Shown: positions 23,497 to 57,436 of the stretch, piece after piece
Numbering within the stretch: the stretch's first letter is position 1
Layout: every line of letters starts with the position of its first letter
Origin: Candidatus Multivoradales bacterium
Lineage (GTDB): Bacteria > Acidobacteriota > Thermoanaerobaculia > Multivoradales > J023
Reading direction: 5' to 3'
DNA: 64,000 nucleotides
NCBI GenBank assembly: GCA_965248925.1
Contig: CBDFLE010000006.1
Span: 2,496,001-2,560,000 of the forward strand
Made by a program: the position numbers and the translations under genes
The notes under the pieces: model-generated
Databases searched by the model: none
What the model was told of the DNA's origin: nothing
What the model saw: the letters and a program-made list of their open reading frames with translations, nothing else

Positions 23497-23608
23497 CGCG
23501 GAATCCTCCATCGGCGCCACCAGGCTAGTTCAACCACCGTGGCGACCCTCGACCGGGATTAATAAGAGAGACATGCCTAATTTAACATACTTGAATAGGT
23601 TGGTGTTA

Positions 23609-25407: not shown

Positions 25408-25415
25408 TCGCCGAG

Positions 25416-26636: not shown

Positions 26637-26705
26637 CAGGCAACCGCCCGAGCGGCCAATCGTCGCGCGATTCCGACGACTGGCTCGCGGGGCGGCAGAG
26701 TGGGC

Positions 26706-29498
26706 TTAGTTGATGATGAACAACGAGTCCTGCAGCGAGAACGGCGGGGACATCTGCGCCCCGTCGACCGCCCGAACATTCGGATCGGCCACTCCCGTGC
26801 TGGTGAAGGTGTGGGTGACCGGTACGGTCACCAGGAACGTCGAGTCGAAGTTACCGTTGGGCTCCCAGTCAAACTCGAGGGTGTCAGGTGTACCAGTGAA
26901 GGTAACATCGAAGGTAATCGACGAACCGACGGTGCAGAAACAACCGAATTGATCACAGGGCGAGCAAGTCGGCGAAGCCGCCACGTTGACCATGAAGCCG
27001 GTGATCACCGGTGGATCCGGCGCCGTGATGTTATCCACCGCCACCGTGACCGCCGCGGTCAGCGGAGTGGTCTGACCCTCGACACAGTTGCGAATCGCCA
27101 GCGTCACCCCATAGTTGCCCGCTACATTCGGCGAGGTCCAGGTGAACGAAGTGTCAGCGTCGTCTACTCCCCAATCATAGATCTGACAGGTGGTGTAGAA
27201 CATGCACCCCGAGGTGCTGCCATTGGCCGGGTCTTCGAATTCCCAGCGCCATTCGGTGGCACTCTCGGTGTTGGCCGCGAAGTTGTACTGAGCGTTACCC
27301 TGATCGGTGAAAGTCAGCGCCGGCACGCCAAAGCCAAGGGCGCCGAGGGCGGTCAGCGTCAGCTCCAGAGTGTCGATATCGGACTCAGCATTTGGGTTGG
27401 TCGCTTGCAGCGAAACGGTGAACACTTCACTCGCAGGCACCCCGCGAGTCAGCAGTCCAGAACTCCAAGCGTTGGTGTTTCCAGATTCGAAACCATCGCT
27501 AAAGATCTGTTCCGGCAGGTCGACATCGATACCCGTGGTGTCCCAAACGATCGGAAAACTGGTACCGCTGGCCACCGTGGTCTTGGTCGAATCCTCGATG
27601 TTCCAGCTATAGGAGAAGGGAGTCTTGCCGTCGACTACCGCGTCGACCGTGATCTCGGTACATACCGGGTAAGTCCCCGGTGGGGATCCCACCGGCGATA
27701 CCGAGAAGGAGCGGATATGAGGCCGCCGGTCCTGGACCAGGATATTGGCTCGATCCTGGATCAACGCCCCATTGCCGGTGCATACGCTGTCGTCGTTCAG
27801 CGCCCAGACTTCGATGGTTTTGTCCGGGCAATCCGCGGCTGCGCACTCGGCCCAAGTGATGGCGTTGGTGGCGGCACCCGGTCCGAGGCCGCCGGTCACC
27901 ACAGTATCGCTGGCGCTCCACTGCCAACCGGCTTGGGCAGTTGAGCAATTGGTGGCGGTGGCGGTGAAAGTGATCGGCTCTTTGAACCACTGCGGGCTCG
28001 GAGTCACCACGTTGGTGGTGTACTTCGGCGCACTGACATTGCCCGCCAGCTGGTGGATATCGAAGATGCCCCGCGCCGCGCGGTAGAAGTAGTTGCCGCT
28101 GAAACGTCCCTGGTTGGGCACGGCGTTGCGCAAGCCGAAATCGTTGAGTTGGTAGTAATCGCCCCAATAGTCCACTTGCAGGCTGTTGCAAGTATCCGTG
28201 TAGTGGGCACCCCCATCGGTTACTTCGGAGATCACATTAGTGCCGCCGAGGTTCGACAGGTCCCAAAGGAATTCCTTTTGGGTGCCGGAGAACAAATCCG
28301 AGAATAGGCTGTAGTAGAGATATGGGGTGGTGCCGGCCATCGAGAAGGTCAGCAACTGGGCCTCCCCCGGCTGGCTGCTCACCGGCAGACTAACCGTAGG
28401 CGCGCCAAGAGAGGTGCAACCATTGGCATCGAGGCAGCTATCGACATCGTAGATCTCGACAATGTAGTTCTCTACCAGCGCCAGGTAGGTGCTGCCGTTC
28501 CAGTCGAAGAACTCAAGGCCGCGGATGTCGCGAATATCCGGGTTCAAGCCACCGCCGGAGTAACGCAGGTCGGCGAATTGAGGAAAGGCCGGATCGGCTA
28601 CTTCAAAGATGTCGAGTTTGAGCGGCCGCGAGGACACCCGGCTACCGTCTGAAACCGCCACCCACAGCTTGCCGCCTTTTTCCGTCACTGCCACGTAGCG
28701 GGTAACCCGCTCCAAATCGCCCAATAAGCCGCGATAGACGTTGCTGCACTGCCGGCCGGCCAGTGCCGCATTGTCGAAGCAAGGTGCCAGCGTTCGCGCT
28801 CGGGTCAGGTCGTAGACCGCCAGGCCTCCGTCGCTGGTATCACTGGCGGCAAAAGCCCAAACCGTGCCGTTGAGTTCGGCCATCCTGATCATCCGCGTCT
28901 TGATGCTGTCATCCTGGTAGGCCTGAGTAAGGCTGTCGACACCAGGGCGGTTGATCCACAGAGCAACGCCCGCTGGCAAATCGCCGGCGGTCGCGATCAT
29001 GTCGTCCTGGACCGCATTAGGATCCTCCATCGCATCCACCGAGTAGGTCCAGGTATCGACTTCGCCGAAATGGCCCCACGCGTGCCAGTGGCCAGCGAGG
29101 GCGTCAGCAACATCCTCGCGCACGGGCATTTCTTCTTTGCCAGGGCCGATATCCCAGACCTGCAAGCCGGCGCCGTAGAGCATGTAGAGCCGGTCGTCAA
29201 CGATGTCCAAAGACTGGAACAGTTCGTGGCCAAAGGCGAAGGTAGGGAAGGTACCGAACGAGGTGTAGCTGGTGCTGTCTCGATCGGCAGGCAGTTGCTG
29301 GCTCGGCTTCACCGGCGAGAAGTTGTTCGGCCAAACCCGTACTCCCTCGCGAAATTCCTCCACCGGTAAAGCTGGTGAGCCGGCGCCACAGAGCCCTCCT
29401 GCCTCGGCCGCCGGAGAGGAAACTAGAATTCCCAGCGCCGTGCCAGCCAGGAACAGATACCTCGACACTAGGAAACTGATTCCTCGAACACCGCGCAT
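26706..29498 (-). CDS. Large secreted protein with PKD/Ig-like domains and internal IFSDGFESGN motif
   Basis: Signal peptide from MRGVRG, Cys pairs, PKD-like 'W.W.F.D' segments. Confidence 0.75.
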   Translation of the reverse strand: MRGVRGISFLVSRYLFLAGTALGILVSSPAAEAGGLCGAGSPALPVEEFREGVRVWPNNFSPVKPSQQLPADRDSTSYTSFGTFPTFAFGHELFQSLDIVDDRLYMLYGAGLQVWDIGPGKEEMPVREDVADALAGHWHAWGHFGEVDTWTYSVDAMEDPNAVQDDMIATAGDLPAGVALWINRPGVDSLTQAYQDDSIKTRMIRMAELNGTVWAFAASDTSDGGLAVYDLTRARTLAPCFDNAALAGRQCSNVYRGLLGDLERVTRYVAVTEKGGKLWVAVSDGSRVSSRPLKLDIFEVADPAFPQFADLRYSGGGLNPDIRDIRGLEFFDWNGSTYLALVENYIVEIYDVDSCLDANGCTSLGAPTVSLPVSSQPGEAQLLTFSMAGTTPYLYYSLFSDLFSGTQKEFLWDLSNLGGTNVISEVTDGGAHYTDTCNSLQVDYWGDYYQLNDFGLRNAVPNQGRFSGNYFYRAARGIFDIHQLAGNVSAPKYTTNVVTPSPQWFKEPITFTATATNCSTAQAGWQWSASDTVVTGGLGPGAATNAITWAECAAADCPDKTIEVWALNDDSVCTGNGALIQDRANILVQDRRPHIRSFSVSPVGSPPGTYPVCTEITVDAVVDGKTPFSYSWNIEDSTKTTVASGTSFPIVWDTTGIDVDLPEQIFSDGFESGNTNAWSSGLLTRGVPASEVFTVSLQATNPNAESDIDTLELTLTALGALGFGVPALTFTDQGNAQYNFAANTESATEWRWEFEDPANGSTSGCMFYTTCQIYDWGVDDADTSFTWTSPNVAGNYGVTLAIRNCVEGQTTPLTAAVTVAVDNITAPDPPVITGFMVNVAASPTCSPCDQFGCFCTVGSSITFDVTFTGTPDTLEFDWEPNGNFDSTFLVTVPVTHTFTSTGVADPNVRAVDGAQMSPPFSLQDSLFIIN

Positions 29499-29722
29499 TG
29501 CTTCCTCTCCTTCGACCCCGAGTCCAGCAGCGCTCTGAGTTGCACACTCAGCGGACTCATACTCTGGTGAGTGGACTCGTTCGCCACCCGGATGTGATGG
29601 TTGTGCAGTGGCCCTGGTCCCTTCCGGAGCACGGCCTATCTGAACCGAGCTATGGTGACACAGCATGAGAAAAAGATCAAGCTCAGAGCCTGTCCACTCC
29701 GTGCTGGTTGCCTGCAAATAGC

Positions 29723-29756
29723 AAAAGGGCCCGACTGCGAACAGTCGAGCCCTTTT
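29723..29756 (-). terminator. Strong intrinsic terminator of the S-layer-like gene
   Basis: Minus AAAAGGGCTCGACTG-ttcg-CAGTCGGGCCCTTTT. Confidence 0.85.
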
Positions 29757-29793
29757 CCATGTCAGACCAGCTTACGCCGACCTGGCAGATTCC

Positions 29794-31140
29794 CTAGTTT
29801 GCGCTGGGAATCACGCCAGTATCGGTGATCAACGGGTTGACATCGTCGCAGGCCGAGGTCAGCGGCAACGCCGAGTAGCCGACCTGGAACAGGCCAAGGG
29901 CACTGATCGTGGTCGTCACATGGCTCTGAGCCAACGAACCGTCGGAACCGAAGTCGACGTCGAAGGCGACGCCAATGTCGTCGATGTTCAAGTTCAAGAA
30001 CATCCAACCCGACTCATACGGAAGGGCCAGGTTGCCGTCGCCTACCGTCGCCCGCTGGGTCTCCAGCGGGAAGCACGGCGGATCCACGTCCGGGTCCGGA
30101 GGCGAAATCACGCCGCCACCCAGGTTGAAGCAGATCTCCACTGCGTTCTCCTGCTCGTCGAACGCCACAACCTCGGTCTCGTTCAGCGGGTTCCACGACG
30201 GGCCAGCACCAGGGCCAGAGCCACAGGCGTAGAACTGCTGGGTGTCAGAGGTCGTCGAGTCACGCCACACCAAGAGGTCGGTACCACCGGTGAAACCAGC
30301 GTTCTCGATGTAACGAGTCGCCCAGGTGGTGGCCAACGGCTCGCGGTTATCCGAGCCGGTCAGGCCTGGATCGTAGCGACCGTAGAAGGTGTAACCGGTA
30401 GGCGTCGAGGCGGCGTTGAACTGCGGATCGGCCTCAATCGCCACCAACGGCTCACCGAAGGAGAAGGCGTTGACCTGGTCGACAATGTAGTAATCGCCCC
30501 ACAGCTCGTTGATGTCGTTGGCAATGCCGACGCCGCCGTCTACGAAGTAGCCGGTCTCGTTCGGGAACACCGTCGAACACTGGTTGACGTTGTCGATCGT
30601 GATGTAACCACGAGCGATGGCGTCACTGTGATCCTCGCCCATGCAGCCCAGACCCAGCACGTCCTGGCCGGTGTGGCCATTCTGCAAACGGGTCAGGTTG
30701 GCCGAGGAAACCACCGGGTTGTTGAACGGGAATACGCCCAAGCAACCAGGGAAGCTACCGTCCCACTGCGGGTTCAAGCCGTGCGGGCTGATCAAGTCGG
30801 CGCCGTCGTTCTGGGCATCGGCCGTGACCGGCAGGTTGCCCTGGAAGACGTCGAACAAGTTAACCGGCACGATGTCGTAGCCAGTGAGGAAAACGTCGAA
30901 GTCGATCGTCGGCTGGGTCCAATCGGTCCACAGCGTGACGTGAGCCAGCGCCGGAGCGGCTGACGCGTTGTTGATCGTGAACAGCGTGGTGGTACCCGCC
31001 GCGTTTGTGTAGTCCACCTCGAAATAGGGCAACAGCAAGGTCGCCGCCGGCACGTTGTCGATCGTGCACAGATCAGCGAAGGCCTGGCCGCCTAAAGCGA
31101 GGAGACTAGCCACTAGAAGGACTAGAACTATCTTTTTCAT
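29794..31140 (-). CDS. Secreted S-layer-like protein, paralog 1
   Basis: Signal peptide MKKIVL..AFA, 'CTIDNVPAATLLLPYFEVD', long structured leader, own terminator. Confidence 0.72.
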   Translation of the reverse strand: MKKIVLVLLVASLLALGGQAFADLCTIDNVPAATLLLPYFEVDYTNAAGTTTLFTINNASAAPALAHVTLWTDWTQPTIDFDVFLTGYDIVPVNLFDVFQGNLPVTADAQNDGADLISPHGLNPQWDGSFPGCLGVFPFNNPVVSSANLTRLQNGHTGQDVLGLGCMGEDHSDAIARGYITIDNVNQCSTVFPNETGYFVDGGVGIANDINELWGDYYIVDQVNAFSFGEPLVAIEADPQFNAASTPTGYTFYGRYDPGLTGSDNREPLATTWATRYIENAGFTGGTDLLVWRDSTTSDTQQFYACGSGPGAGPSWNPLNETEVVAFDEQENAVEICFNLGGGVISPPDPDVDPPCFPLETQRATVGDGNLALPYESGWMFLNLNIDDIGVAFDVDFGSDGSLAQSHVTTTISALGLFQVGYSALPLTSACDDVNPLITDTGVIPSAN

Positions 31141-31649
31141 ACCTGATCAATCTCCCCAGGTTGAAAACTATCTCCGAAGGTTTGGGTGGAGCGTCGAGCC
31201 ACGGGCTCGGGCTCCTCTCGGTAGAGCCTATCGGGCTCACCGCCTAGAACTAGGGTGCGGGCACTCACCTCCTGTTTAAAGACTTCAAACTCTAAATTAG
31301 CTCGATTGGAGCTGTAAAAGCTCTGCGAAACAGGGCCGAAGACTGACGGGTAGGCCATGTTCTTGCTGCCTCGGCCAACCAGAATCAGCCCAAACACCCT
31401 CCCAGGGTCCGCAAACGGACGGGCTGGGCGACTATCTGAGCAAGAGGTTGGAGCCGCGAGGTTCTTCCGAACGTAAGTTACGGCCAGCACAGGGTGGATG
31501 TCAACCCCAAAAACCAAGGGTTTGGGCCTGGCAGGAGGTTTGCTCCGCAAAACCGGGGGAGGAAACTGGGGAGGAGGGCTCTCGGCCGGAGGGAGCCCCG
31601 CAGGCCCTCCAGTCCGCCGGCCGGGAGCTGCCGGCCGGGAGCTAGCGGG

Positions 31650-33335
31650 TCAAGGTGCGTCGGCAGCGACGCTGCGCCACACCCGCAACGATCCCTGCTG
31701 CGGACAACCCGGCTGGTACAAGGCTCCCATTCCAGGCAGACCAGTTGGCTCGCCGGCGAATCCAGCTATCAGCTCGTCGGTACCGTCGCCGTCTAGATCG
31801 GTCAGCCGGGCCAGCCAGCCGGTACAGCCAATGGCCGGCTGGGGGAATTCTGGCGAGACTTCGAGTTGAAAGCCGCCACCCCCGTCGCCGAGGAAGATCA
31901 TCACTTCACCTTCGCCGTTGAGGGCCACCAGATCCTGCTTGGCGTCACCGTCAAAATCGCCGGTGGCAAACGAGGAGAATTCGTTACGGCCCAGGTGCGA
32001 GGCCAAGGCAGTCCGCTGCCAACCCTCACCGTCTTCGTCAACGCGGTAGATATCGATGCCGCTACGCCAGATCTTCAACTCCCGACTGACGTAGCCGAGG
32101 ACCAACTCGCTGCGACCATCGCCATCGAAATCACCGGCGGCTACCGCCGAGATGAAGGCCCTGGGACGAATCGGGCTGAGCTCTTGGGCGCGCAACTCCC
32201 CTTGACCATCGCTGAGATTGAGGATCGCACGATTGCTCATGCGCCGCGAGGCGGTCACCAAATCAGGATGCTGATCCCCATTGAAGTCGGCCATGGCGAA
32301 GCCGTCGCCAAAATCGAACCGCGCCAGCTCATCCTCAGCTGTTGGCCGGGTAGCCTCCCAGGTTCCATCGCCAAGGTTCTGGTAGACCAGATAGCCACGG
32401 GAGCTGCTGATCAATCCGCCGGCTTTTTGATTGGTGAATTTGCGGCCCTTCGGCCCTTCTCCCAAGGCTAAAATATCCGCTTGGCCATCGCCATTCCAGT
32501 CGACCACCTCTACCGCCCGAGAGGAGAACGAAGTGGCGTCGCCACCGGCCCCAGGGTGGTCGACTTCGATACCGGTCGTCCAAGCCTCGAAAACACCGGG
32601 CGTCTTCTGAATCAGCGCCACCACCCCACGCAGGTGGATGCCGAACACCAGGTCCAAGAGGCCGTCGCCGTTGAGGTCGCCAGCCGCCGCATCACCATAG
32701 TCATAGGGCAAAGGCGGGTAGACCACATCCCGCCAACCGGTCCAGTTCCCCTCACCGTCGCCAAGAAAGATATTGGGCAACGGGCGGCTCTTGCGCGCCG
32801 GCCCGAAGACGATGTCGAGATGCCCATCGCCATTCATGTCGGCGATGTCGAAGCCATTTCGCCACTGCCCGCGACGTGGCAACCCGGCGTCAAACTCCTC
32901 GAGATTTAGCCGGTCGATCTTCTTGAGATCGCTCTCGTAGGTCTTGGCCGCCGCCGCCAGTTCCTCTTCGCTGGGCCCTTGCACGACCTTCTTGACCCGC
33001 TTCGGTGGGGGTTGGTAGTACTCCTTGACCCAGAAGTTCTTGGCATCGTGGCGAACTACTTCAAAGAAAGCCCCACCGGGCATCCGCACCCTCTTTTCAT
33101 CCAGCCAGCGGTAGGCCCCTTCTATTTTGGGAATCGCTGAGATCCGGTATTTGAGACCGCGCTCTTCGTCGAGTATCCACTCATCGCTGGCGGTCGGATC
33201 CGCGACGGCCGGCGCGGCCGCGGGTGGCGGTGTTGATTGGCCCAGGACGGCGCCGCCGAAGAGCAGGGCCGGCATCACGAGAGCCGGTACCAGTAGGCGC
33301 CAGCTAGGAAGAGGGCAAGATTTGAACATCATCAA
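31650..33335 (-). CDS. Secreted FG-GAP/VCBS repeat protein
   Basis: Repeated 'DxNGDGxxD' motifs, signal peptide. Confidence 0.9.
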   Translation of the reverse strand: MMMFKSCPLPSWRLLVPALVMPALLFGGAVLGQSTPPPAAAPAVADPTASDEWILDEERGLKYRISAIPKIEGAYRWLDEKRVRMPGGAFFEVVRHDAKNFWVKEYYQPPPKRVKKVVQGPSEEELAAAAKTYESDLKKIDRLNLEEFDAGLPRRGQWRNGFDIADMNGDGHLDIVFGPARKSRPLPNIFLGDGEGNWTGWRDVVYPPLPYDYGDAAAGDLNGDGLLDLVFGIHLRGVVALIQKTPGVFEAWTTGIEVDHPGAGGDATSFSSRAVEVVDWNGDGQADILALGEGPKGRKFTNQKAGGLISSSRGYLVYQNLGDGTWEATRPTAEDELARFDFGDGFAMADFNGDQHPDLVTASRRMSNRAILNLSDGQGELRAQELSPIRPRAFISAVAAGDFDGDGRSELVLGYVSRELKIWRSGIDIYRVDEDGEGWQRTALASHLGRNEFSSFATGDFDGDAKQDLVALNGEGEVMIFLGDGGGGFQLEVSPEFPQPAIGCTGWLARLTDLDGDGTDELIAGFAGEPTGLPGMGALYQPGCPQQGSLRVWRSVAADAP

Positions 33336-33447
33336 TTACTCCTTGGGAAAGGACCCGTTGTCAGCTCGACATTGTGCCCGACCTGGCATCCCAGCGGCTA
33401 TAAGACTTTTGTAAGAATGAGAGCAGCCCCCCACGGGGCATGGCAGC

Positions 33448-34218
33448 CTAGACATGGTCGACAAAGCCGTCCGCGAGACGGCGAAACACCCAGCCGCCGA
33501 GCAGCAACAGCAAAGCCGCCGTCAAGGCAAGACGCAGGATCGGCGCGAAGCCGGCAAAACCACCTCCCAACAACGCCTGGCGATAGAGCTCGACCACGGT
33601 GGTCAGCGGATTCCAGGCGAGCCAAGGGCGAAGAGAGGGCGGTACCAGGTTCATCGAGTAAACGATCGGGGTCACATAAAACCAGCCCATCATCAACAGG
33701 TTGACCAACTGAGCGACATCCCGGAAGAGGGTGTGCAGACTGCACACCAACAAGCCAAGGCCCAAAGTCAGCGCGATTTGCAGCGGCAGGACCAGCAGCA
33801 ACACCGGCAAGCTGAGCAGCGACAGCTTGCCCAGCAGCGCCAGGATGACGATGAAGACGGCACCGGCAATAGCCTCCTGTACCAACCCTCCCAAGACGGT
33901 CGCCAAGACCAGTACTTCCGCCCGAAAGCTCGAACTGCGTACCATGTTGGAGTTGTCGGTGACTGCCGTAGCCGACCGCGAGACTCCCTCTTGAACCGCC
34001 ATCCAGGGCAGCAGGCCGGCAAAAAGGAAGATGCCAAAGCTGTCGGTGCGCTCCCCGACCAAGGAGATCTTCATCACCACTGAGAAAACGAAGGTGAACA
34101 GCGCCAGCTGGAACAGTGGCTGCACGAATGGCCACAAGACACCCAGCAGAGAGCCGGCGAAACGGCTCTGGAAGTCTCTCTTGACGAGTTCTTTGAGGAA
34201 GAAGATCTGACCTTGCAT
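33448..34218 (-). CDS. wzm: Polysaccharide ABC transporter permease
   Basis: 'LVKRDFQSRFAGSLLG.LW', 'WFYVTPIVY', 'NPL....E.YR'. Confidence 0.93.
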   Translation of the reverse strand: MQGQIFFLKELVKRDFQSRFAGSLLGVLWPFVQPLFQLALFTFVFSVVMKISLVGERTDSFGIFLFAGLLPWMAVQEGVSRSATAVTDNSNMVRSSSFRAEVLVLATVLGGLVQEAIAGAVFIVILALLGKLSLLSLPVLLLVLPLQIALTLGLGLLVCSLHTLFRDVAQLVNLLMMGWFYVTPIVYSMNLVPPSLRPWLAWNPLTTVVELYRQALLGGGFAGFAPILRLALTAALLLLLGGWVFRRLADGFVDHV

Positions 34219-48737: not shown

Positions 48738-49310
48738 TCATGTTTCCTCCAGACACATCTCGATCTTCTGTATTGACTCCTCGAATATCTGCAACACATT
48801 TCCGTTTGCGTACTCAGGATCCCCCCAGAACGCCCCGCCCTCAGCACTAGGATCAGGCGCTGAGAAAAGCCAGTATCGCTCCTCTGCTCCACTCGTCGAC
48901 CAGATCTCATAGACCACGTTAGGGAAATAAATAGTCCCGCTCACTGCCAGTGGAAGCGCAAGTGAGTGCAACGCTATCTCGACTGCCTGAAGAGCCGGGC
49001 AAGTCGCTTCTGTAATCTCAGATGAACGCAAGGAACCGCCTTGATGTCGGAATATTATCGCAGTAGTAACTCCATCCTTTTCGAAGAGACTCACTTGTAT
49101 CGAAACCTGCGACTCGCCCCCCCTCTTAATAGTTACTGCCGACTCTCTGGTCCGGAAAAATCCAATCTCTTCCTCCGGACGACTCCAGCCAGAAGGCCGG
49201 CGATCTGTCGATGTAGTGTTCACAGGAGAAATTCCCGGCGTCGTCAAGCTGGGACAGGATAGTGCCGAAAACGCCAACGTTACGTAGAGCACGAGCCTCA
49301 TCAATTTCAC
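48738..49310 (-). CDS. Putative immunity lipoprotein for orphan Rhs
   Basis: GTGA overlap with the Rhs stop, 'MRLVLYVTLAFSALSC' lipobox-like, visibly lower GC. Confidence 0.65.
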   Translation of the reverse strand: MKLMRLVLYVTLAFSALSCPSLTTPGISPVNTTSTDRRPSGWSRPEEEIGFFRTRESAVTIKRGGESQVSIQVSLFEKDGVTTAIIFRHQGGSLRSSEITEATCPALQAVEIALHSLALPLAVSGTIYFPNVVYEIWSTSGAEERYWLFSAPDPSAEGGAFWGDPEYANGNVLQIFEESIQKIEMCLEET

Positions 49311-52012
49311 AGTCCTTCGCATGGCCTCTTTCCACATTGTTTTCTGAAATCCTTCGACCACCCCGAAGGAACTTCGAGAGTAGTCTTCCCAGAATGAGGA
49401 TCGAACTTCCAAATTCCACTGGGATGCACGGTGTAGATCGGTATTCCACGTCTCCTTGAGACGTCTTCGTCGCACCCCGTACAAGAGCTTGGTGGCCCTG
49501 GTTTCTTCCTGGGGTGAGTATGGAAGATGCCACAGGCTCCCTCGGGAATTCTGCCACGGAAGCTGGTTGTGGAACGTGTGGTCGTTCCTGATTTTGCAGA
49601 TGACGGCCACAAAGAGCACCCAAGTTTGCCGTCCTTGCAAGTGGCCCAGAACGCCTCTTCTGTGCCTTTCATCCCGAAGCCAGCCTTCTTGAAGATGCAG
49701 TAGATGCATTTTCTAATCCCAGTATCATCTGTAATTGCATCAAGGCCAAGCGGGTCGAAGTAAGCCGTAGGATTCGCCAGGGCAAAAGAAAAGAGATTCA
49801 GAGCAGAGCGCTCGGGAGGTAATAGGCCCAGCGGGTCTGTCCGAGTGTATCTTCCCGCTCCAACATTGTACCAGCGATAAACATTATAATAGATATCAAT
49901 GCCGGTTCCCCAAGAATCATCTTGCCACTGCCCTGGGGAGCGCAAGGAGATTCCGTTATCACTAGCTCCGACGTAGTCCTGGCCAAACGGCTCGAACCCG
50001 CCTGACCAAGCCTGAGAACCGCCGTTGTCTGTTGCCAGGATAGGAGTCCCAAGATGATCCAGAGTCAGGTGAGTCGACGAGCTACCCTCAATCTGTGCTG
50101 TTGGGTGCCCCGCAAAGTAGACGATAACGGCCGACCCTTTGAAACCGTTTCTTCCCTGAAGGGTCCCACCACTACTGTAGGAGGGAGTGGTAGTCACCGT
50201 CTCGAAGCATGCCCCCGCTCCCTGGCCGGCCTCGCCTTTGCCGGTATCGGAATTGCTCCACCCAGTAGTATCTCCGCTCTCGAAACCATCACAAAACAGC
50301 GCGCTGCCATCGGCGAAGGGGCGGCTTCTCGTGACCTGTCGCAATAAACTGCGACCATCGTAGAGCATGGTTGATGTCGCCTGGGCGGAGGCGTGATCGA
50401 TCGCCTTGAGACGACCTGCGTCGTCGTAGGTGTAGGTGATCGGGTCGCTGTCCTCGTCGATACCGATTTGGTTGCCGCTTGCATCGAAGTTGTAGATCCT
50501 ACTTCCACCTGCATTCAAGGAGATCAGGTCGAGCTTGGCTGTGTTACCGCTGCCCGATGTGTTGACATGGTATGTGTAGATATCGGTCAGGCCATTACGC
50601 GTCTCGCTCAGCCGATTGCCGATCTTGTCATAGGTCCAAACTTGCAAACCCCACGGGCCATCGCCTTGAGTGAGGAAATACTGGTAGTCCTGATGACCGT
50701 AGGTGCGGCTGTTCGCAGCATCCTGGAGGTCGGCGATGGCGCTGATGTTGCCAACACCATCGGTCGAATACTCCCAGTCCAGAAGAGTTCCGCCTGGGCC
50801 GACCGCAGTGATTCGCTCGGGTTGGTAGCGACTGTCATATGGCCGAGTTTCTACGATGCCATTTCCTCGAGTAAGTTGGCGCAGCGGTCCGATTGGATTA
50901 TAAGTCGCTCCAGTAACAACTGACTGGATTCCCTGCCCGGGAATCTCAGCATCGAGGGTCAGCTGCCGATCCGCGTGATCGAATGCATAGAGCGCCTTCA
51001 TTCCTCCTGGATACAAGATCTCTGACTTGTTGCTATTCAAGTCGTAAGCGTAGGCTAGGTCTCCATCGCGGGTCGTGCGGCCGAAGCGGTCATATTCGTA
51101 GGCGATGGGAAAACCGTCGCGAGTGATCTGAGTGAGTCGGCCGAGGCTGAAGGTCACCAGCGGATCGTCGTAGGCGTAGGTCACGTCGAGGGTGTCGTCG
51201 GGATAGTCGACCAAGGCAACTCGGTCTAGTTCGTCAATGGTGCGCAAGGTCGTGATGTTGCGGGCGTCGGTGCTTTCGATGAGCTGGCCGTGCTCGTTGT
51301 ACCGATTTGTCGTTAGACCGGAGACTTCAGAGGTTTCTTGGGTTAGCAGATCTCGGTCGCTGTAGACGTAGCTGGTCACGGTACCTTCAGCATCGGTCAA
51401 GGTGATCAAATGGTCTTGTACGTCATAGCCGTGGGTCGTTATTGCTTGACCGCCTCCGGCGCCGCCGAAGGGCTGACTTACAGTGCTCAGTCGGTCGAGC
51501 GGATCGTAGGCGTAGGCCGTACTCGGCAACGCCGTTTGCCCGGCCGATGGGTGGTTGGCGTCCCAGATCTGCTCTAGGTCTCCATCGGAATCATACGAGA
51601 ACTCAGTGAGCGCTTGCTCTGGGCTGCCGGCGCCTTCGATGGTCTTGTCGAGATGGCAGCGGCTGGAATAGACGTACTCGGTATTGAAGTCGCTTACCCA
51701 GCTCGCGCCGTCACAGCTTCGCAGCTCTTCGCGGACCCGGTGACCAAAGCCATCGAGGGTGTAGAAGGTACGCTCGATGTGGCTGCCGGGCAGGTCGTCT
51801 GGCTTGCGTTCGATGGACACCAACCGGCCGACAAGGTCGTACCCATACTCCAGCACGTTGCCTCGCGGAAGAACGGTCTGGAGGAGATCGCCGAAGACGG
51901 TGTAGCGTTGCTCGGTGATCAAATCCTCGGCCGGTATTGCGCCTTTCTGAATGCTGAACAGAACACGATTGAGCGCGCCGTATTGCGTTTCGCTGGGCAC
52001 CAGCTCGTGCAC
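49307..52012 (-). CDS. Orphan Rhs module with JAB-like (HTHP) C-terminal toxin
   Basis: YD repeats, 'GRYTRTDPLG', 'NP..YFDPLG' cleavage motif, tip 'EEAFW...GIFHTHP...D'. 5' end nearly identical to an internal segment of the upstream Rhs. Confidence 0.88.
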   Translation of the reverse strand: MHELVPSETQYGALNRVLFSIQKGAIPAEDLITEQRYTVFGDLLQTVLPRGNVLEYGYDLVGRLVSIERKPDDLPGSHIERTFYTLDGFGHRVREELRSCDGASWVSDFNTEYVYSSRCHLDKTIEGAGSPEQALTEFSYDSDGDLEQIWDANHPSAGQTALPSTAYAYDPLDRLSTVSQPFGGAGGGQAITTHGYDVQDHLITLTDAEGTVTSYVYSDRDLLTQETSEVSGLTTNRYNEHGQLIESTDARNITTLRTIDELDRVALVDYPDDTLDVTYAYDDPLVTFSLGRLTQITRDGFPIAYEYDRFGRTTRDGDLAYAYDLNSNKSEILYPGGMKALYAFDHADRQLTLDAEIPGQGIQSVVTGATYNPIGPLRQLTRGNGIVETRPYDSRYQPERITAVGPGGTLLDWEYSTDGVGNISAIADLQDAANSRTYGHQDYQYFLTQGDGPWGLQVWTYDKIGNRLSETRNGLTDIYTYHVNTSGSGNTAKLDLISLNAGGSRIYNFDASGNQIGIDEDSDPITYTYDDAGRLKAIDHASAQATSTMLYDGRSLLRQVTRSRPFADGSALFCDGFESGDTTGWSNSDTGKGEAGQGAGACFETVTTTPSYSSGGTLQGRNGFKGSAVIVYFAGHPTAQIEGSSSTHLTLDHLGTPILATDNGGSQAWSGGFEPFGQDYVGASDNGISLRSPGQWQDDSWGTGIDIYYNVYRWYNVGAGRYTRTDPLGLLPPERSALNLFSFALANPTAYFDPLGLDAITDDTGIRKCIYCIFKKAGFGMKGTEEAFWATCKDGKLGCSLWPSSAKSGTTTRSTTSFRGRIPEGACGIFHTHPRKKPGPPSSCTGCDEDVSRRRGIPIYTVHPSGIWKFDPHSGKTTLEVPSGWSKDFRKQCGKRPCEGL

Positions 52013-52258
52013 CCCCTGTCAACGCTTCGGCCGGACCCTCGCGAGACCGACCGCATGACTCGGGGTCAACGTGGTTCGCTACTCCTTCGTCGTAGAGGAC
52101 TCACACCTCCTACATCCTGCCGGTCTTAACCGGCGCTCTCTGCCTGGCACTTCTCTAGCGGTGGATCGAGGTTCTCTGGCTGACTTTCGGCGGTGTAGGT
52201 GGTTCAGCTGAAGACTTGGTCATCTTAAACTCCTTCCGCGATCCCATCGCAAACCTAC

Positions 52259-52681
52259 TCACGATCCCGGAGGACCGAGCTGAGGGGATACCCAACTAAC
52301 CTGGTAGACTCGGACGCTATCGACAACACTTCCCCCAAAGTGCTTGTTGAGTAGGTTTACCAACTCCTCTTGGAAGGCCTCCCTCGTTTCACCGTCTAGT
52401 AGACGCAGGCCATAAGAAGTAGACCTATCCACAACGAGCCCTCTAGCAATACTCAGATTTTCCTCTGTGAGTTCAAGAAGAACCTCCTTCTTCCCATACA
52501 AAGTTACTCTAAAGATCAGACCCAAGTGATCTCCCAGCTCAGCTTCGAGCGTCCTAGGAGAGATCTCTAAGGCAAAAACGTTATCAACCGCCCTTCCAGT
52601 GAGTTTGTCTTGCTCAGCGGCCTGTTCGGTACAAGCGCTAAGAACAAGCAGAAACATAAACGTGAGTACGAGAATCCGCAT
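52259..52681 (-). CDS. Putative immunity lipoprotein for main Rhs
   Basis: TAATG coupling, lipobox 'LSAC'. Confidence 0.72.
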   Translation of the reverse strand: MRILVLTFMFLLVLSACTEQAAEQDKLTGRAVDNVFALEISPRTLEAELGDHLGLIFRVTLYGKKEVLLELTEENLSIARGLVVDRSTSYGLRLLDGETREAFQEELVNLLNKHFGGSVVDSVRVYQVSWVSPQLGPPGS

Positions 52682-55600
52682 TAGAATGGACTGCCCAGAA
52701 AAGATCCAGGATACAAGCCATTCAGACAATCGCTACCGATCCCATACGCTTCGCACTCAAGAAGATTTCTTACTTGGGAGACTGAAACACCGGCTGCAAG
52801 CAGGTTTATAATTCGAGGCTCCCTCAGCTGGGATTCGTGCTTTCTCTCATGTTGGCAAACACAATAGTCGACACAATCGTCTCCAGATGGCACGTACCGC
52901 GGCCCATCTCCTACGTCCCCGACCCGTCGAGCACCCCCTTCTCGCTCGAGCTGTGCTACCTGGGGTGGATAAGTCGGGCTATTTCTGAATTTGCAAAACT
53001 CTCCGCCGATGCGACGAGAGAATTGCAAAGCGCCAGAAATTACAGATGGCCTACAGGGTGCCGGACATGGTTTCGTGGCATCTGGAGGGCACTGTAAAGG
53101 CAAGCCTGAAGAAAGTGGGTCCCCTGCGAACAATCCTAACTCATCGGAAAGCCGTATCGGCTGTGCATCTGCGTACCAATAGCCATTGGCTTCAGATGGG
53201 ATTCTAATCCCCAAAGGGTCGAGCCTTGAGTATCTTCCGTCTCTTGCCAAGTACCATCGGTGGCCGTTGTATGTAACAGAGGAAGTTGAACTCCAGGATC
53301 CGTCCTCCCACTGCCCAGGGAAACGTAAGAACACTTCGCCGCTCCCCATCCCAGCGTAGTCCTGGCCAAATGGCTCAAACCCACCATCCCGACTGACTGC
53401 CCCGTCTCCCCGCGCGGCAAGCACAATTGTGCCGAGGTGGTCTACGCTGAGGTGGAGAAGCTCATCACCTTCAGACTGCGCGGCAGGCTGCCCCCCATGG
53501 TAGAGAATAGCGCTGACTCCAGACTCCCCAGCCCGCTGCTGGAGCACCCCCGCCGAACTGTAAGTAGCCAGAGTCACAGCCTGGGCCAGACAGCTACTAG
53601 TCCCAGCACCGTCCCAGGCGCTAGTATCGCCGCTTTCAAAGCCATCGCAGAAGAGAGCGTTGCCGGAGGTATCCGGCTCTCGACCGGTAGCTTTGCGCAG
53701 GTGGCTGCGACCGTCGTAGAGAATCACTGAGATGCTCTGTGCCGATGCACGCTCTATCTTCGATAGTCGACCTGCATCGTCAAAGTTGTAGCTCACTGCG
53801 TCCCCATTGTTATCGATGCCAATCTGGTTGCCGGCAGCATCGAAAGTGTAGAAACGGGCGCCGCCTACACCGAGCGCGACCTGGTCGAGTTTCGCTGTAT
53901 TACCGATACCCGCGGCGTTGCTAAGATACTGATAGATGTCGGTCGCACTGTCACGAGTCTCGCTGAGTCGGTTCCCGATTCTGTCATAGGTCCAGGCAAG
54001 ATTTCCCCAGGGGCCATCGCCCTGGGTCAGGAAATACTGATAGTCCTGGTAACCGTATGTGCGGTTGTTCGACGCGTCAAGCACATCTGCAATTGACCTG
54101 ACATTCCCTACCCCGTCGATCACGTAGTCCCAATCGAGCAAGACGCCGCTTGGGCCTACAACCGAGATACGCTCTGGCTTGTAGCGGCTATCGAAGAGTC
54201 GGCTTTCGCTCACACCATTGCCGCGCGTCAGCTGGCGCAGAGGGCCGAGGGGCTGGTAGAGGGCTCCCGTGACGATCGATTGGATGCCCTGACCTGGCAC
54301 GTCGGCATCGAGAGTCAGGTGACGGTCAGCATGATCGAATGTGTAGATCGCCCTCACACCACCAGGGTACAGGATCTCGCTCTTGTTGCCGTTGGTGTCG
54401 AAGGCGTAGGTCAGCTCGCCGTCTTGCGTCATGCGGCCGAAGCGATCGTACTGGTAGTCGATCGGCTGACCTTCACGCTCGATCCGGGTCAGCCGGCCGA
54501 GGCTGAAGGGCACCAGCCCGTCATCGTAGGTGTACGTCACATCGAGGGTGTCATCGGGGTAGTCGACGAGGGTGACCCGATCCAGCTCATCGAGAGTGCG
54601 GCCGGTGGCAATGCTGCGAGCGTCGATGGTCTGGGTGAGTCGGCCGTGCTCGTTGAACGCATGGCTGGTCACGCCAGAGACCTCGGAGGTCTCGCGGGTC
54701 GGCAAATCTCGATCGGAGTATAGATAGCCGGTGACCGTGCCCTCTGGGTCAGTCACCGTGGTCAAATGATCTTGAACGTCAAAACCGTAGGCCGTCACGG
54801 CCTGACCACCGGCCGTGCCCCCGAATGGCTGGCTGACGGTGGTCAAGCGGTCTAGCGGATCATAGGCGTAAACCGTGCTGGCTTCAGCGGTTTGGCCCGC
54901 GGAGGGGTGGTTCGCGTCCCAGATCCTCTCGATCTGCCCATCGCAATCATACGAAAACTCCGTGATCGCCTGTTCGGGGCTGCCAGTACCCGCGATGACT
55001 CGATCGAGATGGCACCGCGTGGAGTAGAGATAGTCTGTCCGGAACTCGCTTACCCAAGTAGCGCCGTCCCAGCTTTGCAACTCTTCGCGGACCCGGTGAC
55101 CAAAGCCATCGAGGGTATAGAAGCTGCGCTCGATGTGGCTGCCGGGCAAGTCATCGGGCTTTCGCTCGATGGACACAAGTCTGCCTGTGGGATCGTAGCC
55201 ATATTCGATCACGTTGCCGCGCGGCAGGACGGTTTGGAAGAGGTCGCCAAAGACCGTGTAGCGTTGCTCGGTGATCAGATCCTCTGCCGGTATTGCGCCT
55301 TTCTGGATGCTGAACAGAACACGATTGAGCGGGTCGTACTGCGTTTCGCTAGCTACGCCGTTGGGGTCGGTGACTGAAGTTCGGCGATTGAAGGGGTCGT
55401 AACCGAACAGAGTGCTGCCGATCAGCGGATCGGTACGGCTGGCCAGCACCAGGCCGCCACGGGCAGCGTCCCAGGCGCTGGTGGTGACATCGGCGGTGCC
55501 GTAGCCGGGTGGGTCGCGGTCTTCGGGTTGGCCCTCGGCGGTGTAGGTGGTCGTGGTGGTGTAGCTGAAGACCTGGCCGTCTTCTACTCCTTCGTCGATC

Positions 55601-57436
55601 CGATCAGTGGCGTTGCCTTGGCCGCTGAGGGTGAAGGTTGTACGGCGGAAATCGAGAGGGGTGCCGGTGGTCGAGGGGCGCTCGATCTCGGTGATCAAGG
55701 CCGGGTAGGTGAGGTCGCGCTGCCAAGTGGTCTCGCGCTCCAGCGCCGTGCCTAGAGCTTCGACACGGGAGATTGCTTGGCCGTTGGCGTCGTAGGTGGT
55801 GAGCGTCGTGGTGCCGCCGCCGTCGATCTGGCGGGTGGGGCGCAGGGGGTGCGCCGGATCCTCATAGAACAGCCGGCTGTTGGGGCCGGTGCCGCAGCTT
55901 GGGCAGGAGCCTTCGAGCTGCTCTAGACGAGGCTTGCGGCTGTCGGAGTCGCGGCCCAAGGTGTAGGTGGAGATCTCGCCCATGGGGTCGGTGACCGTGG
56001 TGACCATGGGCAGCTGGGGATCGTCGAAGCTCATCGACCAGCGATCGACGGCGCCGGCATCGTTGAAGTTGGCCGCGCCTTTCCACATTTGCACTACATT
56101 GCCGAAGGGATCATAGGCCCAGGAGCCCGCGATCCACTCGCTAGCGTTTGTACCCTCCAGACTCATTCGGGTCATGTAGCCCGGCAAGGTTGGGTCATCG
56201 TAGAGGAAGACCCAGGCGGTGCCGTCGGGTCGGTCGATGCGGGTGAGGTCTTGACCGGTGAAGGTGTAACCCCAGGTGCGGCTGGTGATTCCGTCGCTGC
56301 CGACTTCTGTAATCGAGTCCAGCCTGCCGCCCGCCGAGTAGGTGAAGGTCTCCGAGCGGCCATCGGGGAAACTGACGGCGGTCAGCCGGCCAGTGCCGTC
56401 GCGGGTGGCGGTTTTGGCGTTGCCGTTGCGGTCGGTGGTCGAGGACCATAGGCCGGTGTCGTCGAATTGCATCAGGGTGCCGTCTAGCTCGAGCAGGGTC
56501 CAGCCGGTCGGGGTCTTGGTCAGAGTGCGGTATTCGTCGCTGGGAATGGTGCGGTCGTAGTCCCCGTCCATGTTTAGGTCGGTAAAGCGGCGGAAGGTGG
56601 CGTAGCGAGTGAGCAGCCAGACGTTGCTGTCATCGGGGTCGCGAGCGATTCTTTCGGTGTAGTCGTGGGCCCAATAGCGCCCCAGCTCCGCAGTGATGCC
56701 GGCCGAGCCGGGGTAGGTCGGGTGGCCGACGCCGCCAGCGTGGTAGCGCAGTAGGGCGCCGGGGCCGCTCTGCGGCGGCGAGGCGCCGCCTCCACCACCA
56801 CCCGCGCTGCCGCCTATTCCGCGGCCACCACCGACGCAGGTAGGGCAATTCTCATCTTCCGGGCAGCCGCTGGGCGGGGGTGGGGGTGGGCAGAGGGGCG
56901 ACAGGCTGAAGTCGACGACGCGGGTCGCTTCTTTCGGGCAATGGGGACAGAGGCCGAAGGCACAGGGGCAGGCGGTGGCGGTGATCGTGTAGCTGGCCAT
57001 CAGATCGCTGCAAGAGCTGGTGATGCCCCAGCTCAAGGTACCGTGATCTTCCTCGATCACCGCGCCCGAGAAGCCGCAGGTGCCCAGGGTGCCACCGCCG
57101 CTGGGGGTCACCGTGACGGTGGCGAAGCTATACAGGAAGCCCGAGGCGCTGGGATCGTTCTGGTGGTTTCCGGCGAAGTCGATCGGCACTTCGATGGTGA
57201 TGGCGCAGGATTCGATCGCCGAGTCGCAGCCAGCCTCCGGGGTAAAGGTGGCGCCGGAGATGACCGGCGTGTAGCAGCGGGCGCCAGTGGAGCAAGTTCG
57301 AGGGTTGGTCAGCGAAGAATCCTTGTTCGAGGTAAGTGAGGACGCCGCTGCAGGCGGTGCCGGCTTGCAGTGCTGTTGCCAGGCTTAGAACGCTGAGGAA
57401 ACCGATGAGAAGGGAGAGGCTGATGGATCGGATCAC
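52681..57436 (-). CDS. Rhs/YD-repeat toxin with signal peptide and HExxH metallopeptidase tip (one frameshift near 57300-57380)
   Basis: Signal peptide in the 57436 frame, body in the 57189 frame. 'GRYSRLDPLG', 'PIRLSDELG', tip 'HERKH...ECEAY'. Confidence 0.87.

Follow-up and report, generated by a model that had tools for sequence, protein, structure and literature searches.

WapA is a Sec-dependent Rhs/YD toxin of Gram-positive bacteria, and in the solved Rhs and Tc structures the C-terminal toxin is cleaved off and enclosed in a cocoon. Sec-dependent Rhs/YD polymorphic toxins that do without type VI secretion systems (T6SS) are a listed class in Table 1 of Zhang et al. (2012; PMC3482391). 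The Rhs locus described here, from a window of 64,000 nucleotides (the whole stretch of DNA that was analysed) of a soil-type Acidobacteriota bacterium, resembles such toxins in its family signal peptide, its YD cocoon and its DPxGL-bearing core, as well as in a predicted toxin at the C-terminus that varies and has a small gene behind it, with an orphan toxin module downstream. It differs from them in having a Cys-rich N-terminal domain without a known family and, in the last hairpin of the shell, a conserved, Cys-paired peptide insertion that also occurs as a proteome-wide C-terminal tail. Unlike that of WapA, the host is diderm, so that an outer-membrane step is required. The graft of this peptide into an Rhs shell is new.

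The main Rhs ORF (P0004; 52681..57189, minus strand) encodes 1502 aa as assembled, laid out as a Cys-rich N-terminal domain, a Gly-rich linker, a YD-repeat cocoon, an Rhs-associated core and a C-terminal toxin. YD (RHS) repeats were matched by PF05593 (E 4e-37 in P0004 and 9e-21 in its neighbor P0003) and also by TIGR01643, and both proteins scored above the 32.5-bit cut-off of the core model TIGR03696 (45.9 bits at aa 1272-1353 of P0004; 38.7 bits at aa 674-757 of P0003). The core of P0004 (53131..53442, minus strand; placed by TIGR03696 and the 8qjc alignment) runs from DHLGT through DPLGI to DELGL, the last being the second of its DPxGL-type motifs, and aligns with the Salmonella bongori Rhs 8qjc (phmmer, E 1e-5). 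An AF2 model of aa 160-1359 (mean pLDDT 87.7, pTM 0.81) predicts a closed beta-cocoon fold, for which the best Foldseek matches are the Rhs cocoons 8qja, 8qjc, 7q97 and 7pq5 (E 1e-48 to 1e-42); Tc and teneurin shells are matched besides. The N-terminal domain matched no known family in Pfam and gave no usable match in the ESM Atlas. At the other end, the toxin domain (about 149 aa; 52684..53130, minus strand) carries an HERKH motif of the HExxH type. It differs from the C-terminal toxin of P0003, and neither of the two matches a Pfam family; an assignment of the P0004 toxin to the M91 peptidases was rejected, its ESM Atlas score of 0.82 being at chance level. For the aspartyl autoproteolysis that would free this toxin within the shell there are sequence motifs only. 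A 140-aa ORF (52259..52681, minus strand), whose start overlaps the P0004 stop and whose N-terminus is lipoprotein-like (MRILVLTFMFLLVLSAC), matched no Pfam family. From their position only, this ORF and one of 187 aa after P0003 (48738..49301, minus strand; lipoprotein-like start MRLVLYVTLAFSALSC) are candidate immunity genes.

An earlier note on this DNA had attributed a Sec-type signal peptide to the main Rhs. Signal peptides are indeed present in the family consensus and in the paralogues P0006 and P0007, and in P0006 signal peptide and body share a single reading frame. In P0004 as assembled, on the other hand, the signal-peptide-coding start (MIRSISLSLLIGFLSVLSLATALQAGTAC...; 57290..57436, minus strand) is in another frame than the Rhs body, with the switch near 57294-57300. 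Short-read contigs across the frame change differ from the locus at 4-17 other places and therefore derive from paralogues. The note had also described the system as lacking PAAR and VgrG and as independent of the T6SS, and here our searches agree with it: P0004 has no PAAR, VgrG-binding or prePAAR domain, and neither TssC nor Hcp had a match in a genome rated 96.9% complete, in which PAAR occurs only as two small stand-alone ORFs on another contig. P0004 is like the T6SS Rhs effectors in its cocoon fold (8qja, 8qjc, 7q97, 7pq5, and 8uy4; Foldseek E 1e-48 to 1e-38) and unlike them in these absences and in its family signal peptide. The phmmer alignments to the T6SS Rhs proteins 8qjc, 8qjd and 8qjb stop short of covering the loop described below.

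The tag loop of P0004 (ALFCDGFESGDTSAWDGAGTSSC, ALF-C-DGFESGDTSAW-DGAGTSS-C; aa 1178-1200, 53590..53658, minus strand) and that of P0003 (ALFCDGFESGDTTGWSNSDTGKGEAGQGAGAC, ALF-C-DGFESGDTTGW-SNSDTGKGEAGQGAGA-C; aa 571-602, 50207..50302, minus strand) are insertions of 23 and 32 residues in the last hairpin of the YD shell, between YDGRSxL and xYSSxG and about 50 aa upstream of DHLGT. The positions reported earlier for these two motifs and for a third copy in the protein P0125 were exact, all three on the minus strand. The two loops were said to interrupt the Rhs core at the same position; the position is the same, but it lies upstream of the TIGR03696 domain and not inside it. P0003 (49307..52012, minus strand), an "orphan" Rhs copy truncated to 901 aa, ends in a toxin unlike that of P0004, and its N-terminus is nearly identical to P0004 from about aa 640 on. 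It is a truncated duplicate (paralogue) of P0004, and the shared loop position is thus inherited and not the product of two independent events.

Related Rhs proteins either have the insertion or do without it. The loop is present in 36 of 48 aligned homologues, the other 12 having a turn of about 10 residues. In 45 Acidobacteriota genomes, 75 related Rhs loci were compared: 39 have the loop, 32 have a turn of 15-20 residues and four were unreadable, so that hairpin spacing is bimodal (43-51 aa in the 39 loci vs. 15-20 aa in the 32); the size of the insertion over related loci is 25-60 residues. Among Acidobacteriota, a large clade of Rhs toxins with signal peptides has kept the insertion. Among homologues of 35-60% identity, the loop motif has an invariant F, E, and W and a near-invariant D and G, and outside the motif the loop differs in length and sequence, just as the comparison of P0004 with P0003 had led the earlier note to state. 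Cysteines are always even in number, with two in 86 of 88 distinct loops and four in the remaining two. The first of them occupies motif position 2 in 41 loops, position 11 in 27 and position 12 in 16, and follows the W in two; "Cysteine-bracketed" is accordingly a fair description of P0004 and P0003, but in relatives the first Cys may sit 1-2 residues before the W. The even number is consistent with a stapling disulfide whose anchor would have moved during evolution. The P0004 loop is predicted to be unfolded (pLDDT 38-65 in the AF2 model, vs. the model mean of 87.7). Loop-less Rhs paralogues look intact.

The motif is also found far from the Rhs genes. The pattern F.DGFE.G....W had 55 matches in 15,460 ORFs of at least 150 aa and 0 in each of five residue shuffles, and is therefore not a chance match. 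Its 13-residue core, F-x-D-G-F-E-S/T-G-D/N-x-x-x-W, is present in the genome as 48 C-terminal tails and 14 Rhs loops, which bears out the earlier description of the motif as mainly a C-terminal tail of secreted proteins. In a tail the core lies no more than about 12 residues from the stop. The W lies 5 residues from the stop in 25 of these tails and 6 residues in nine. A genome-wide scan for an association with signal peptides had been proposed, and it did reveal one: signal-peptide-like starts, called by a heuristic, were found in 33 of the 48 tailed ORFs vs. 177 of 600 control ORFs. A Pfam family was assigned to 19 of 40 tailed proteins scanned, including Peptidase_S8 (three times), M14, Endonuclease_1, BNR/Sortilin, and FG-GAP, as well as DUF11, cadherin-like, GH39, and SLH, and one tailed protein has a "choice-of-anchor" GloVer repeat. 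The 48 tailed proteins are mutually unrelated and predicted to be exported. In a 396-aa ORF, the motif is internal with further domains behind it.

Tail and loop have only the core in common, given that the terminal part of the tail, commonly S-x-x-V-P and then the stop, is missing from the Rhs loops. At the unconstrained positions of the core, residue preferences in the 48 tails and in 58 distinct Rhs loops agree (S over T: S 64 vs. 63%, T 18 vs. 25%; G 93 vs. 91%; D over N: D 70 vs. 60%, N 18 vs. 20%; T 58 vs. 43%), and the motif is the same in both, as had been claimed. In the model of a tagged S8 peptidase (mean pLDDT 90.7) the tail, residues 464-483, has a pLDDT below 50 and is predicted to be unfolded. 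Among 120 orthologues of this peptidase, 36 end in the tag, while 17 have PF18962 and eight have PF13860 at the same position. No NCBIfam or Pfam model matches the tails, and a search of 25 tails and two loops against Pfam at E up to 10 returned nothing except one CBM46 match (E 0.041). A reading of the tail as the first strand of a lectin-like (LamG) domain is neither favored nor contradicted by that search or by the four Laminin_G_3 matches in the genome, none of which starts with the motif. In the literature, no paper was found that prints DGFESG, FADGFE, FTDGFE, FSDGFE, FCDGFE, or FKDGFE; published matches to FEDGFE are unrelated to the motif.

Known C-terminal sorting signals offer partial parallels. 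As outlined in the literature, the tags read by sortase-like enzymes (LPXTG, PEP-CTERM, GlyGly-CTERM, MYXO-CTERM) are, like this tail, short signatures on dozens of unrelated exported proteins with a patchy distribution. Unlike LPXTG and PEP-CTERM tags, the tail stops 5-6 residues after the W with no hydrophobic helix or basic cluster, and it is not a tripartite C-terminal sorting signal. We know of no LPXTG, PEP-CTERM, GlyGly-CTERM, or MYXO-CTERM tag that is also used internally. In the S8 peptidase orthologues the tail takes the place, directly after the catalytic domain, of C-terminal domains (CTDs) of the type IX secretion system (T9SS; PF18962- and PF13860-type). Those CTDs are folded and measure about 80-100 residues, whereas the tail is predicted to be unfolded and measures about 20. 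The tail is not a T9SS CTD by the evidence of the 25 tails, which up to E 10 matched no such domain, and of PorV, which was not matched in the genome; a search for SprA was uninformative, with no match even in control genomes. The T9SS as the reader of the tag was likewise rejected on the PorV result.

Our preferred reading, held with slightly less than even confidence, is that the insertion is a linear export or tether tag, not described before, grafted into the Rhs shell. An extracytoplasmic partner would recognise the tail in trans as an address or docking tag that is linear and intrinsically unfolded, and the tail would direct either passage through the outer membrane or attachment to the matrix or cell surface. 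Because the Rhs C-terminus is a toxin, enclosed in the cocoon in the solved structures, the tag could not be terminal there; a hairpin of the wall would instead have received it, with a disulfide to pin it, for binding by the same reader. The outcome would be an Rhs toxin exported by Sec, independent of the T6SS, and addressed or held in the manner of the tagged hydrolases and adhesins. For this reading we count the same motif in tails and loops, the insertion itself, the Cys parity, the co-occurrence of loops and tails, the repeated change of loop state on the Rhs tree, the export, and the absence of a T6SS, along with the predicted unfolded state of both loop and tail and the sorting domains at the tail position in orthologues. 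Against it we count the low model confidence of the loop, the S-x-x-V-P end that is not kept, the loop-less Rhs in tail users, a co-occurrence that is not independent of kinship, and the scarcity of tails in genomes with the "C-x-W" loop type. A wider formulation, in which the peptide F-x-D-G-F-E-S-G-D-x3-W is an anchor-free extracytoplasmic label that is read in trans and works both as a free tail and as a closed loop, with Rhs toxins having gained or retained it in one wall hairpin and sharing the route of hydrolases and adhesins, is possible but somewhat doubtful.

If the tag reading is true, the locus would encode a T6SS-independent, surface-held Rhs weapon. A shell peptide common to dozens of exported enzymes provides a handle on how diderm bacteria get Sec-exported Rhs out of the periplasm and to a target. 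Internal, stapled use would imply that the reader recognises the conformation of the peptide and not a free terminus, and to our knowledge it would be the first case of a short sorting-type tag as an internal stapled loop. Shorter "IFxDGFE" endings in Gammaproteobacteria would take the tag beyond one phylum. For Acidobacteriota, which have few genetic tools, the tag may furthermore prove useful as a small handle for display or secretion.

It is conceivable, if unlikely, that the peptide is instead a self-sufficient sticky element that needs no machinery and binds a glycan, LPS, a cation, or a receptor; and it is just as unlikely that enzymes would be kept near their producer in this way, with the Rhs shell displaying a receptor-binding loop to target cells. 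Such an element would suit the acidic and aromatic core (F, D, F, E, D, W), the predicted unfolded state in tail and loop, and the adhesin-like FG-GAP, DUF11, and cadherin proteins among the tagged. The loop is optional among Rhs paralogues, as a targeting accessory would be, and no reader gene was found. However, about 13 residues are short for autonomous specific binding, and the location of 34 of 48 tails 5-6 residues before the stop, together with the conserved V-P end, suggests a protein that reads a terminus. Moreover, the tail position in orthologues is taken by secretion or sorting domains, not by adhesion modules.

We find it rather improbable that the loop has no role in trans, whether it elaborates the shell structurally or toward its interior or is a neutral passenger of recombination, and the same goes for the corollary that its likeness to the tail is reuse of a locally common sequence. 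Rhs genes do recombine, this genome has about 15 copies, and the paralogues that lack the loop appear intact. Yet F, E, and W are invariant in homologues of 35-60% identity in which the remaining loop varies, Cys parity is maintained despite the moving position, and the loop is essentially limited to tail-using genomes.

Disulfide-bridged nicking loops are known from AB toxins such as the diphtheria, Shiga, and clostridial neurotoxins, and T9SS and sortase-type tags are cleaved. The Rhs loop would be similar as an exposed loop closed by two cysteines on a toxin carrier, and is dissimilar in that no protease site is known, the Cys position shifts, and the motif is also present on non-toxin proteins. 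The motif could be a processing site, at which a dedicated peptidase or transpeptidase trims, activates, or attaches the protein, a proposal that we regard as improbable, along with its extension to Rhs, in which the Cys pair would join the halves after nicking. That Cys within or around the motif always come in even numbers is compatible with processing, as are a flexible loop that is likely protease-accessible in the model, the cleaved tag types at the tail position in orthologues, and the internal motifs with domains behind them in P0125 and the 396-aa ORF. Conversely, 43 of 88 loops have their first Cys after DGFE, which leaves part of the motif outside the disulfide, and a cut 5-6 residues from the end of a tail would free only a tiny peptide; no candidate enzyme was found, and PorV was not matched.

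P0125, a large exported protein of 1003 aa with a signal peptide from MRGVRGISFLV... (26706..29498, minus strand) and no confident Pfam family, carries its internal motif copy (IFSDGFESGNTNAWS; 27462..27506, minus strand), with about 250 aa after it, in a linker between PKD-like repeats and not between cysteines. Two of the genes around it encode proteins without a family; the others encode a Wzm/Wzt-type ABC exporter, a GT4 glycosyltransferase, a 2OG oxygenase, and an FG-GAP protein. The earlier note had thus correctly located the motif in this protein, but the neighbors it took to be S-layer-like have no SLH or S-layer family. Its proposal of a loop by which the Rhs docks to an S-layer, with genes close to P0125, is very unlikely, since no such family is found there and the P0125 motif is internal and not Cys-bracketed, notwithstanding the motif in P0125 itself and the SLH domain of one tagged protein (L038) elsewhere in the genome.

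The co-occurrence counted in favor of an export or tether tag was examined with a strict definition of tails (motif, 5 aa, stop). Strict tails were found in 24 of 26 genomes with loop-bearing Rhs vs. 2 of 18 genomes with loop-less Rhs only, kinship being ignored in this comparison; of the two loop-bearing genomes without strict tails, one has five non-Rhs copies of the motif under a looser pattern. In a phylum sample, one genome with loop-less Rhs (G266) had 0 motifs, and two with loop-bearing Rhs (G176 and G119) had 7 and 54. Independent contrasts of loop vs. tails comprised only 3-4 pairs and were not significant. Four tail-using genomes hold loop-less beside loop-bearing Rhs paralogues, and in two tail-rich genomes, with 12 and 28 strict tails, every Rhs among the loci examined lacks the loop, which indicates that some Rhs, at least, can do without it. 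Tails are few (0-5 strict) in genomes whose loops are of the "C-x-W" type. On the Rhs tree, 4-5 changes of loop state are needed, and a clade uniting the loop-bearing Rhs is rejected by an AU test (p 0.001, for a group named after the first tree had been seen); as reconstructed, the loop state has changed more than once. Because Rhs genes recombine, these repeated changes may reflect gene conversion instead of repeated selection. The loop-bearing loci have no flanking gene common to them. Ten loop-less Rhs loci have an upstream secreted repeat protein in common.

The Rhs loop is real, ancient and under selection, and it is tied to genomes in which the same peptide serves as a C-terminal tail. 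The DGFESGD motif that the earlier note had pointed out in both Rhs genes of the window is confirmed here and extended to the genome and its relatives. The genome (7.98 Mb, 62% G+C, 6 contigs) has named relatives that all belong to Acidobacteriota (Thermoanaerobaculia, Holophagales, 'Ca. Multivoradales'). The main Rhs gene, P0004 (1502 aa; 52681-57189, minus strand), is followed downstream by a truncated copy, P0003 (901 aa; 49307-52012, minus strand), whose first residues are almost the same as those of P0004 from aa ~640 onward; both carry RHS/YD repeats and the Rhs-associated core TIGR03696. Modeled with AlphaFold from an alignment of 48 sequences, aa 160-1359 of P0004 form a confident cocoon (pLDDT 87.7, pTM 0.81), which has solved Rhs, Tc and teneurin shells as structural matches. 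The loops lie exactly where they had been placed, at aa 1178-1200 of P0004 (53590-53658, minus strand) and aa 571-602 of P0003 (50207-50302, minus strand), and they share one position by inheritance, because the genes are paralogues.

The loops are inserted at the last hairpin of the shell (YDGRSxL ... xYSSxG). This site precedes the core domain and lies approximately 50 residues before DHLGT. An insert of 25-60 residues occupies this hairpin in 36 of 48 aligned homologues, and a turn of about 10 residues in the other 12. The distance from one hairpin anchor to the other is bimodal in 75 Rhs loci of 45 MAGs (43-51 residues in 39, 15-20 in 32, unreadable in 4). Many loop-less Rhs (L069, L071, L076, L079, L085, L087, L088, L091 and others) have an 18-residue turn with one conserved cysteine (e.g., ...DLSVCSPLLTQPTY), roughly at the place of the second cysteine of loop-bearing Rhs. 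Of 185 database homologues, the best 120 include at least 54 with the strict motif, and 8 further homologues have D[DSC]FE or DGVE variants. Distinct motif-bearing loops contain exactly two cysteines in 86 of 88 cases and four in the remaining 2, with the first cysteine directly behind the leading F (41 loops), two residues before the W (27), one before it (16) or behind it (2). An even count held constant while the positions shift argues for a putative disulfide that closes the loop, with selection apparently acting on constrained presentation rather than on any particular cysteine.

A six-frame scan of the genome with a relaxed motif returned 66 matches, 48 of them within 12 residues of a stop codon. 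These C-terminal tails most often have 5 (25 tails) or 6 (9 tails) residues behind the W. The other matches comprise 14 Rhs loops, one copy 18 residues from a stop, one unrelated sequence and two non-Rhs internal copies, in the 1003-aa exported protein P0125 within the window and in a 396-aa ORF. The latter (contig C6, minus strand, motif at ~3,344,462) encodes an exported cadherin-like protein with the full tag (IFADGFESGNTFAWSSTLGQAVP) followed by collagen-like G-x-y repeats, and may reflect a fusion or a frame problem. The strict core was observed 55 times, vs. 0 in shuffled proteomes. By our own permissive heuristic, signal-peptide-like starts were found in 33/48 tagged ORFs vs. 177/600 control ORFs (Fisher p 9e-8), and hydrophobic leaders are visible in several of the 15 tagged ORFs scored negative. 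There are 46 tagged ORFs with at least 140 aa; family scans covered 40 of them, and 19 of the 40 had Pfam families typical of exported proteins. The Pfam families were S8 and M14 peptidases, endonuclease I, BNR/sortilin, FG-GAP, DUF11, cadherin-like, GH39 and SLH; NCBIfam added ELWxxDGT repeats and a 'choice-of-anchor' GloVer repeat. The tail itself matched no family model in NCBIfam or Pfam, and our literature search found no paper in which the motif is printed. The genome's four Laminin_G_3 matches do not start with the motif, and a reading of the tail as a lectin strand found no confirmation. Tails and Rhs loops have the same residue preferences at positions that the pattern leaves free, and the usual tail end, S-x-x-V-P before the stop, is absent from the loops. 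Three paralogous small ORFs with a Big_9 domain (C6, ~1,338,000, 2,439,900 and 4,023,100) terminate in the tag plus ...WTETCASASC, and thus have two cysteines behind the W in a C-terminal version. A second tail, distinct from the DGFESGD tail (...PVELQGFTVD or ...PVELIEFSVD before the stop), occurs on other exported proteins of C6 outside the window (~999,600-1,007,400).

Across 301 sampled genomes of the phylum, a DNA pattern for the core gave 91 matches in G005, 80 in G165, 60 in the window's genome, 54 in G119 and 38 in G276, with 3-7 in four more genomes and 0-2 in the remainder (reversed-pattern control, 0-1); five genomes from a single genus of the same order had none. Of the 45 MAGs that carry related Rhs genes, strict tails (core, 5 residues, stop) were found in 24/26 with loop-bearing Rhs vs. 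2/18 with loop-less Rhs only, the 45th being assigned to neither class. The two exceptions with a loop were G336, which has five non-Rhs copies by a looser pattern, and the fragmented MAG G307, in which the motif occurs only in the Rhs loop. In the phylum sample, loop-less Rhs goes with no motifs in G266, and loop-bearing Rhs with 7 motifs in G176 and 54 in G119. The association (Fisher p 5e-8) is uncorrected and concerns two traits common to kin; independent contrasts numbered only 3-4 and were not significant. Tails do not imply a loop-bearing Rhs: G005 and G165 are tail-rich and lack this Rhs family, and the loci fetched for two tail-using MAGs contain only loop-less Rhs. Four MAGs carry both kinds of Rhs. 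On an Rhs tree built with the loop columns left out, the loop state requires 4-5 changes, and a single loop-bearing clade was rejected (AU test, delta lnL 92.9, p 0.001; the group was named after a first tree had been seen), a pattern that recombination among Rhs paralogues could mimic. Ten loop-less loci (L076, L079, L085, L087, L088, L090, L096, L099, L114, L125) share an upstream same-strand gene for a ~540-aa secreted protein with the repeat '...G.FVVVW.S.GQDGSG.GIF.RRF'; no such common upstream neighbor was found at loop-bearing loci.

Both versions of the peptide were modeled unfolded by AlphaFold, the Rhs loop at pLDDT 38-65 and the tail of a tagged S8 peptidase (residues 464-483) below 50, vs. 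a mean of 90.7 for the enzyme. The peptide therefore resembles, in these predictions, a linear stretch whose ordering would require a partner. Among 120 orthologues of that peptidase (P0126-P0245), the stretch that immediately follows the catalytic domain was the full tag in 36, PF18962, the T9SS C-terminal domain, in 17 and PF13860, also a T9SS domain, in 8. Orthologues named as Gammaproteobacteria (Lysobacteraceae, Wenzhouxiangellaceae, Marinicella) have shorter 'IFxDGFE' endings or a tandem '...IFANGFE' at the extreme end, and others have a different tail, 'WPNxVSILDLIPxLP'. This 'choice of anchor' segment, interchangeable across phyla, is the best indirect evidence that the tail belongs among secretion or sorting signals, and the half-motif F-x-D/N-G-F-E may represent a wider, undescribed C-terminal signal. 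That the tag is an address or tether label read in trans by a putative reader is, in our estimate, slightly short of an even prospect; the rest is shared by a peptide that binds autonomously, a site of processing or nicking and, for the loop, a non-functional or interior element.

The earlier note had proposed a surface-sorting or S-layer-docking tag displayed on a T6SS-independent Rhs. This mechanism is partly supported: with the Rhs C-terminus occupied, the tag would have been relocated into the shell, which is the most economical reading of its position there. No S-layer link was found around P0125, whose neighborhood (22165-34218) looks like one for polysaccharide export rather than for an S-layer and includes a Wzt/Wzm-type ABC exporter, a GT4 glycosyltransferase, a 2OG-Fe(II) oxygenase and an FG-GAP protein.

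The Rhs family consensus and the paralogues P0006 and P0007 begin with a signal peptide, a ~130-residue Cys-rich domain and a glycine-rich linker. In the main Rhs the signal-peptide part (57290-57436, minus strand) and the body (52681-57189) are read in different frames; in its paralogues both share one frame. Short-read contigs over the frame change (near 57294-57300; four runs, one sample) show 4-17 differences at other positions and therefore derive from paralogues; the change may be a real break or an assembly error. RHS toxins exported Sec-dependently are a recognized class in Table 1 of Zhang et al. (2012; PMC3482391). Neither a PAAR nor a VgrG domain was found in P0004, and TssC, Hcp and PorV had no match in the genome (96.9% complete), which encodes three secretins. 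Two small stand-alone PAAR-motif ORFs (~140 aa; contig C5, ~2,086,400-2,086,730 and 1,884,485-1,884,736) may be part of another contractile-injection-type system.

The toxin end of P0004 (52684-53130, minus strand) contains an HExxH-type motif, HERKH; it had no family match, and comparison with M91 peptidases in the ESM Atlas gave 0.82, which is chance level. Small ORFs with lipoprotein-like leaders lie behind both toxins, at 52259-52681 (minus strand; …LVLSAC…), where the start overlaps the Rhs stop of P0004, and behind P0003 at 48738-49301 (minus strand; …FSALSC…). By their position they are candidate immunity proteins, with leaders that would fit action outside the cytoplasm; if both are such proteins, the site of action would be the envelope.
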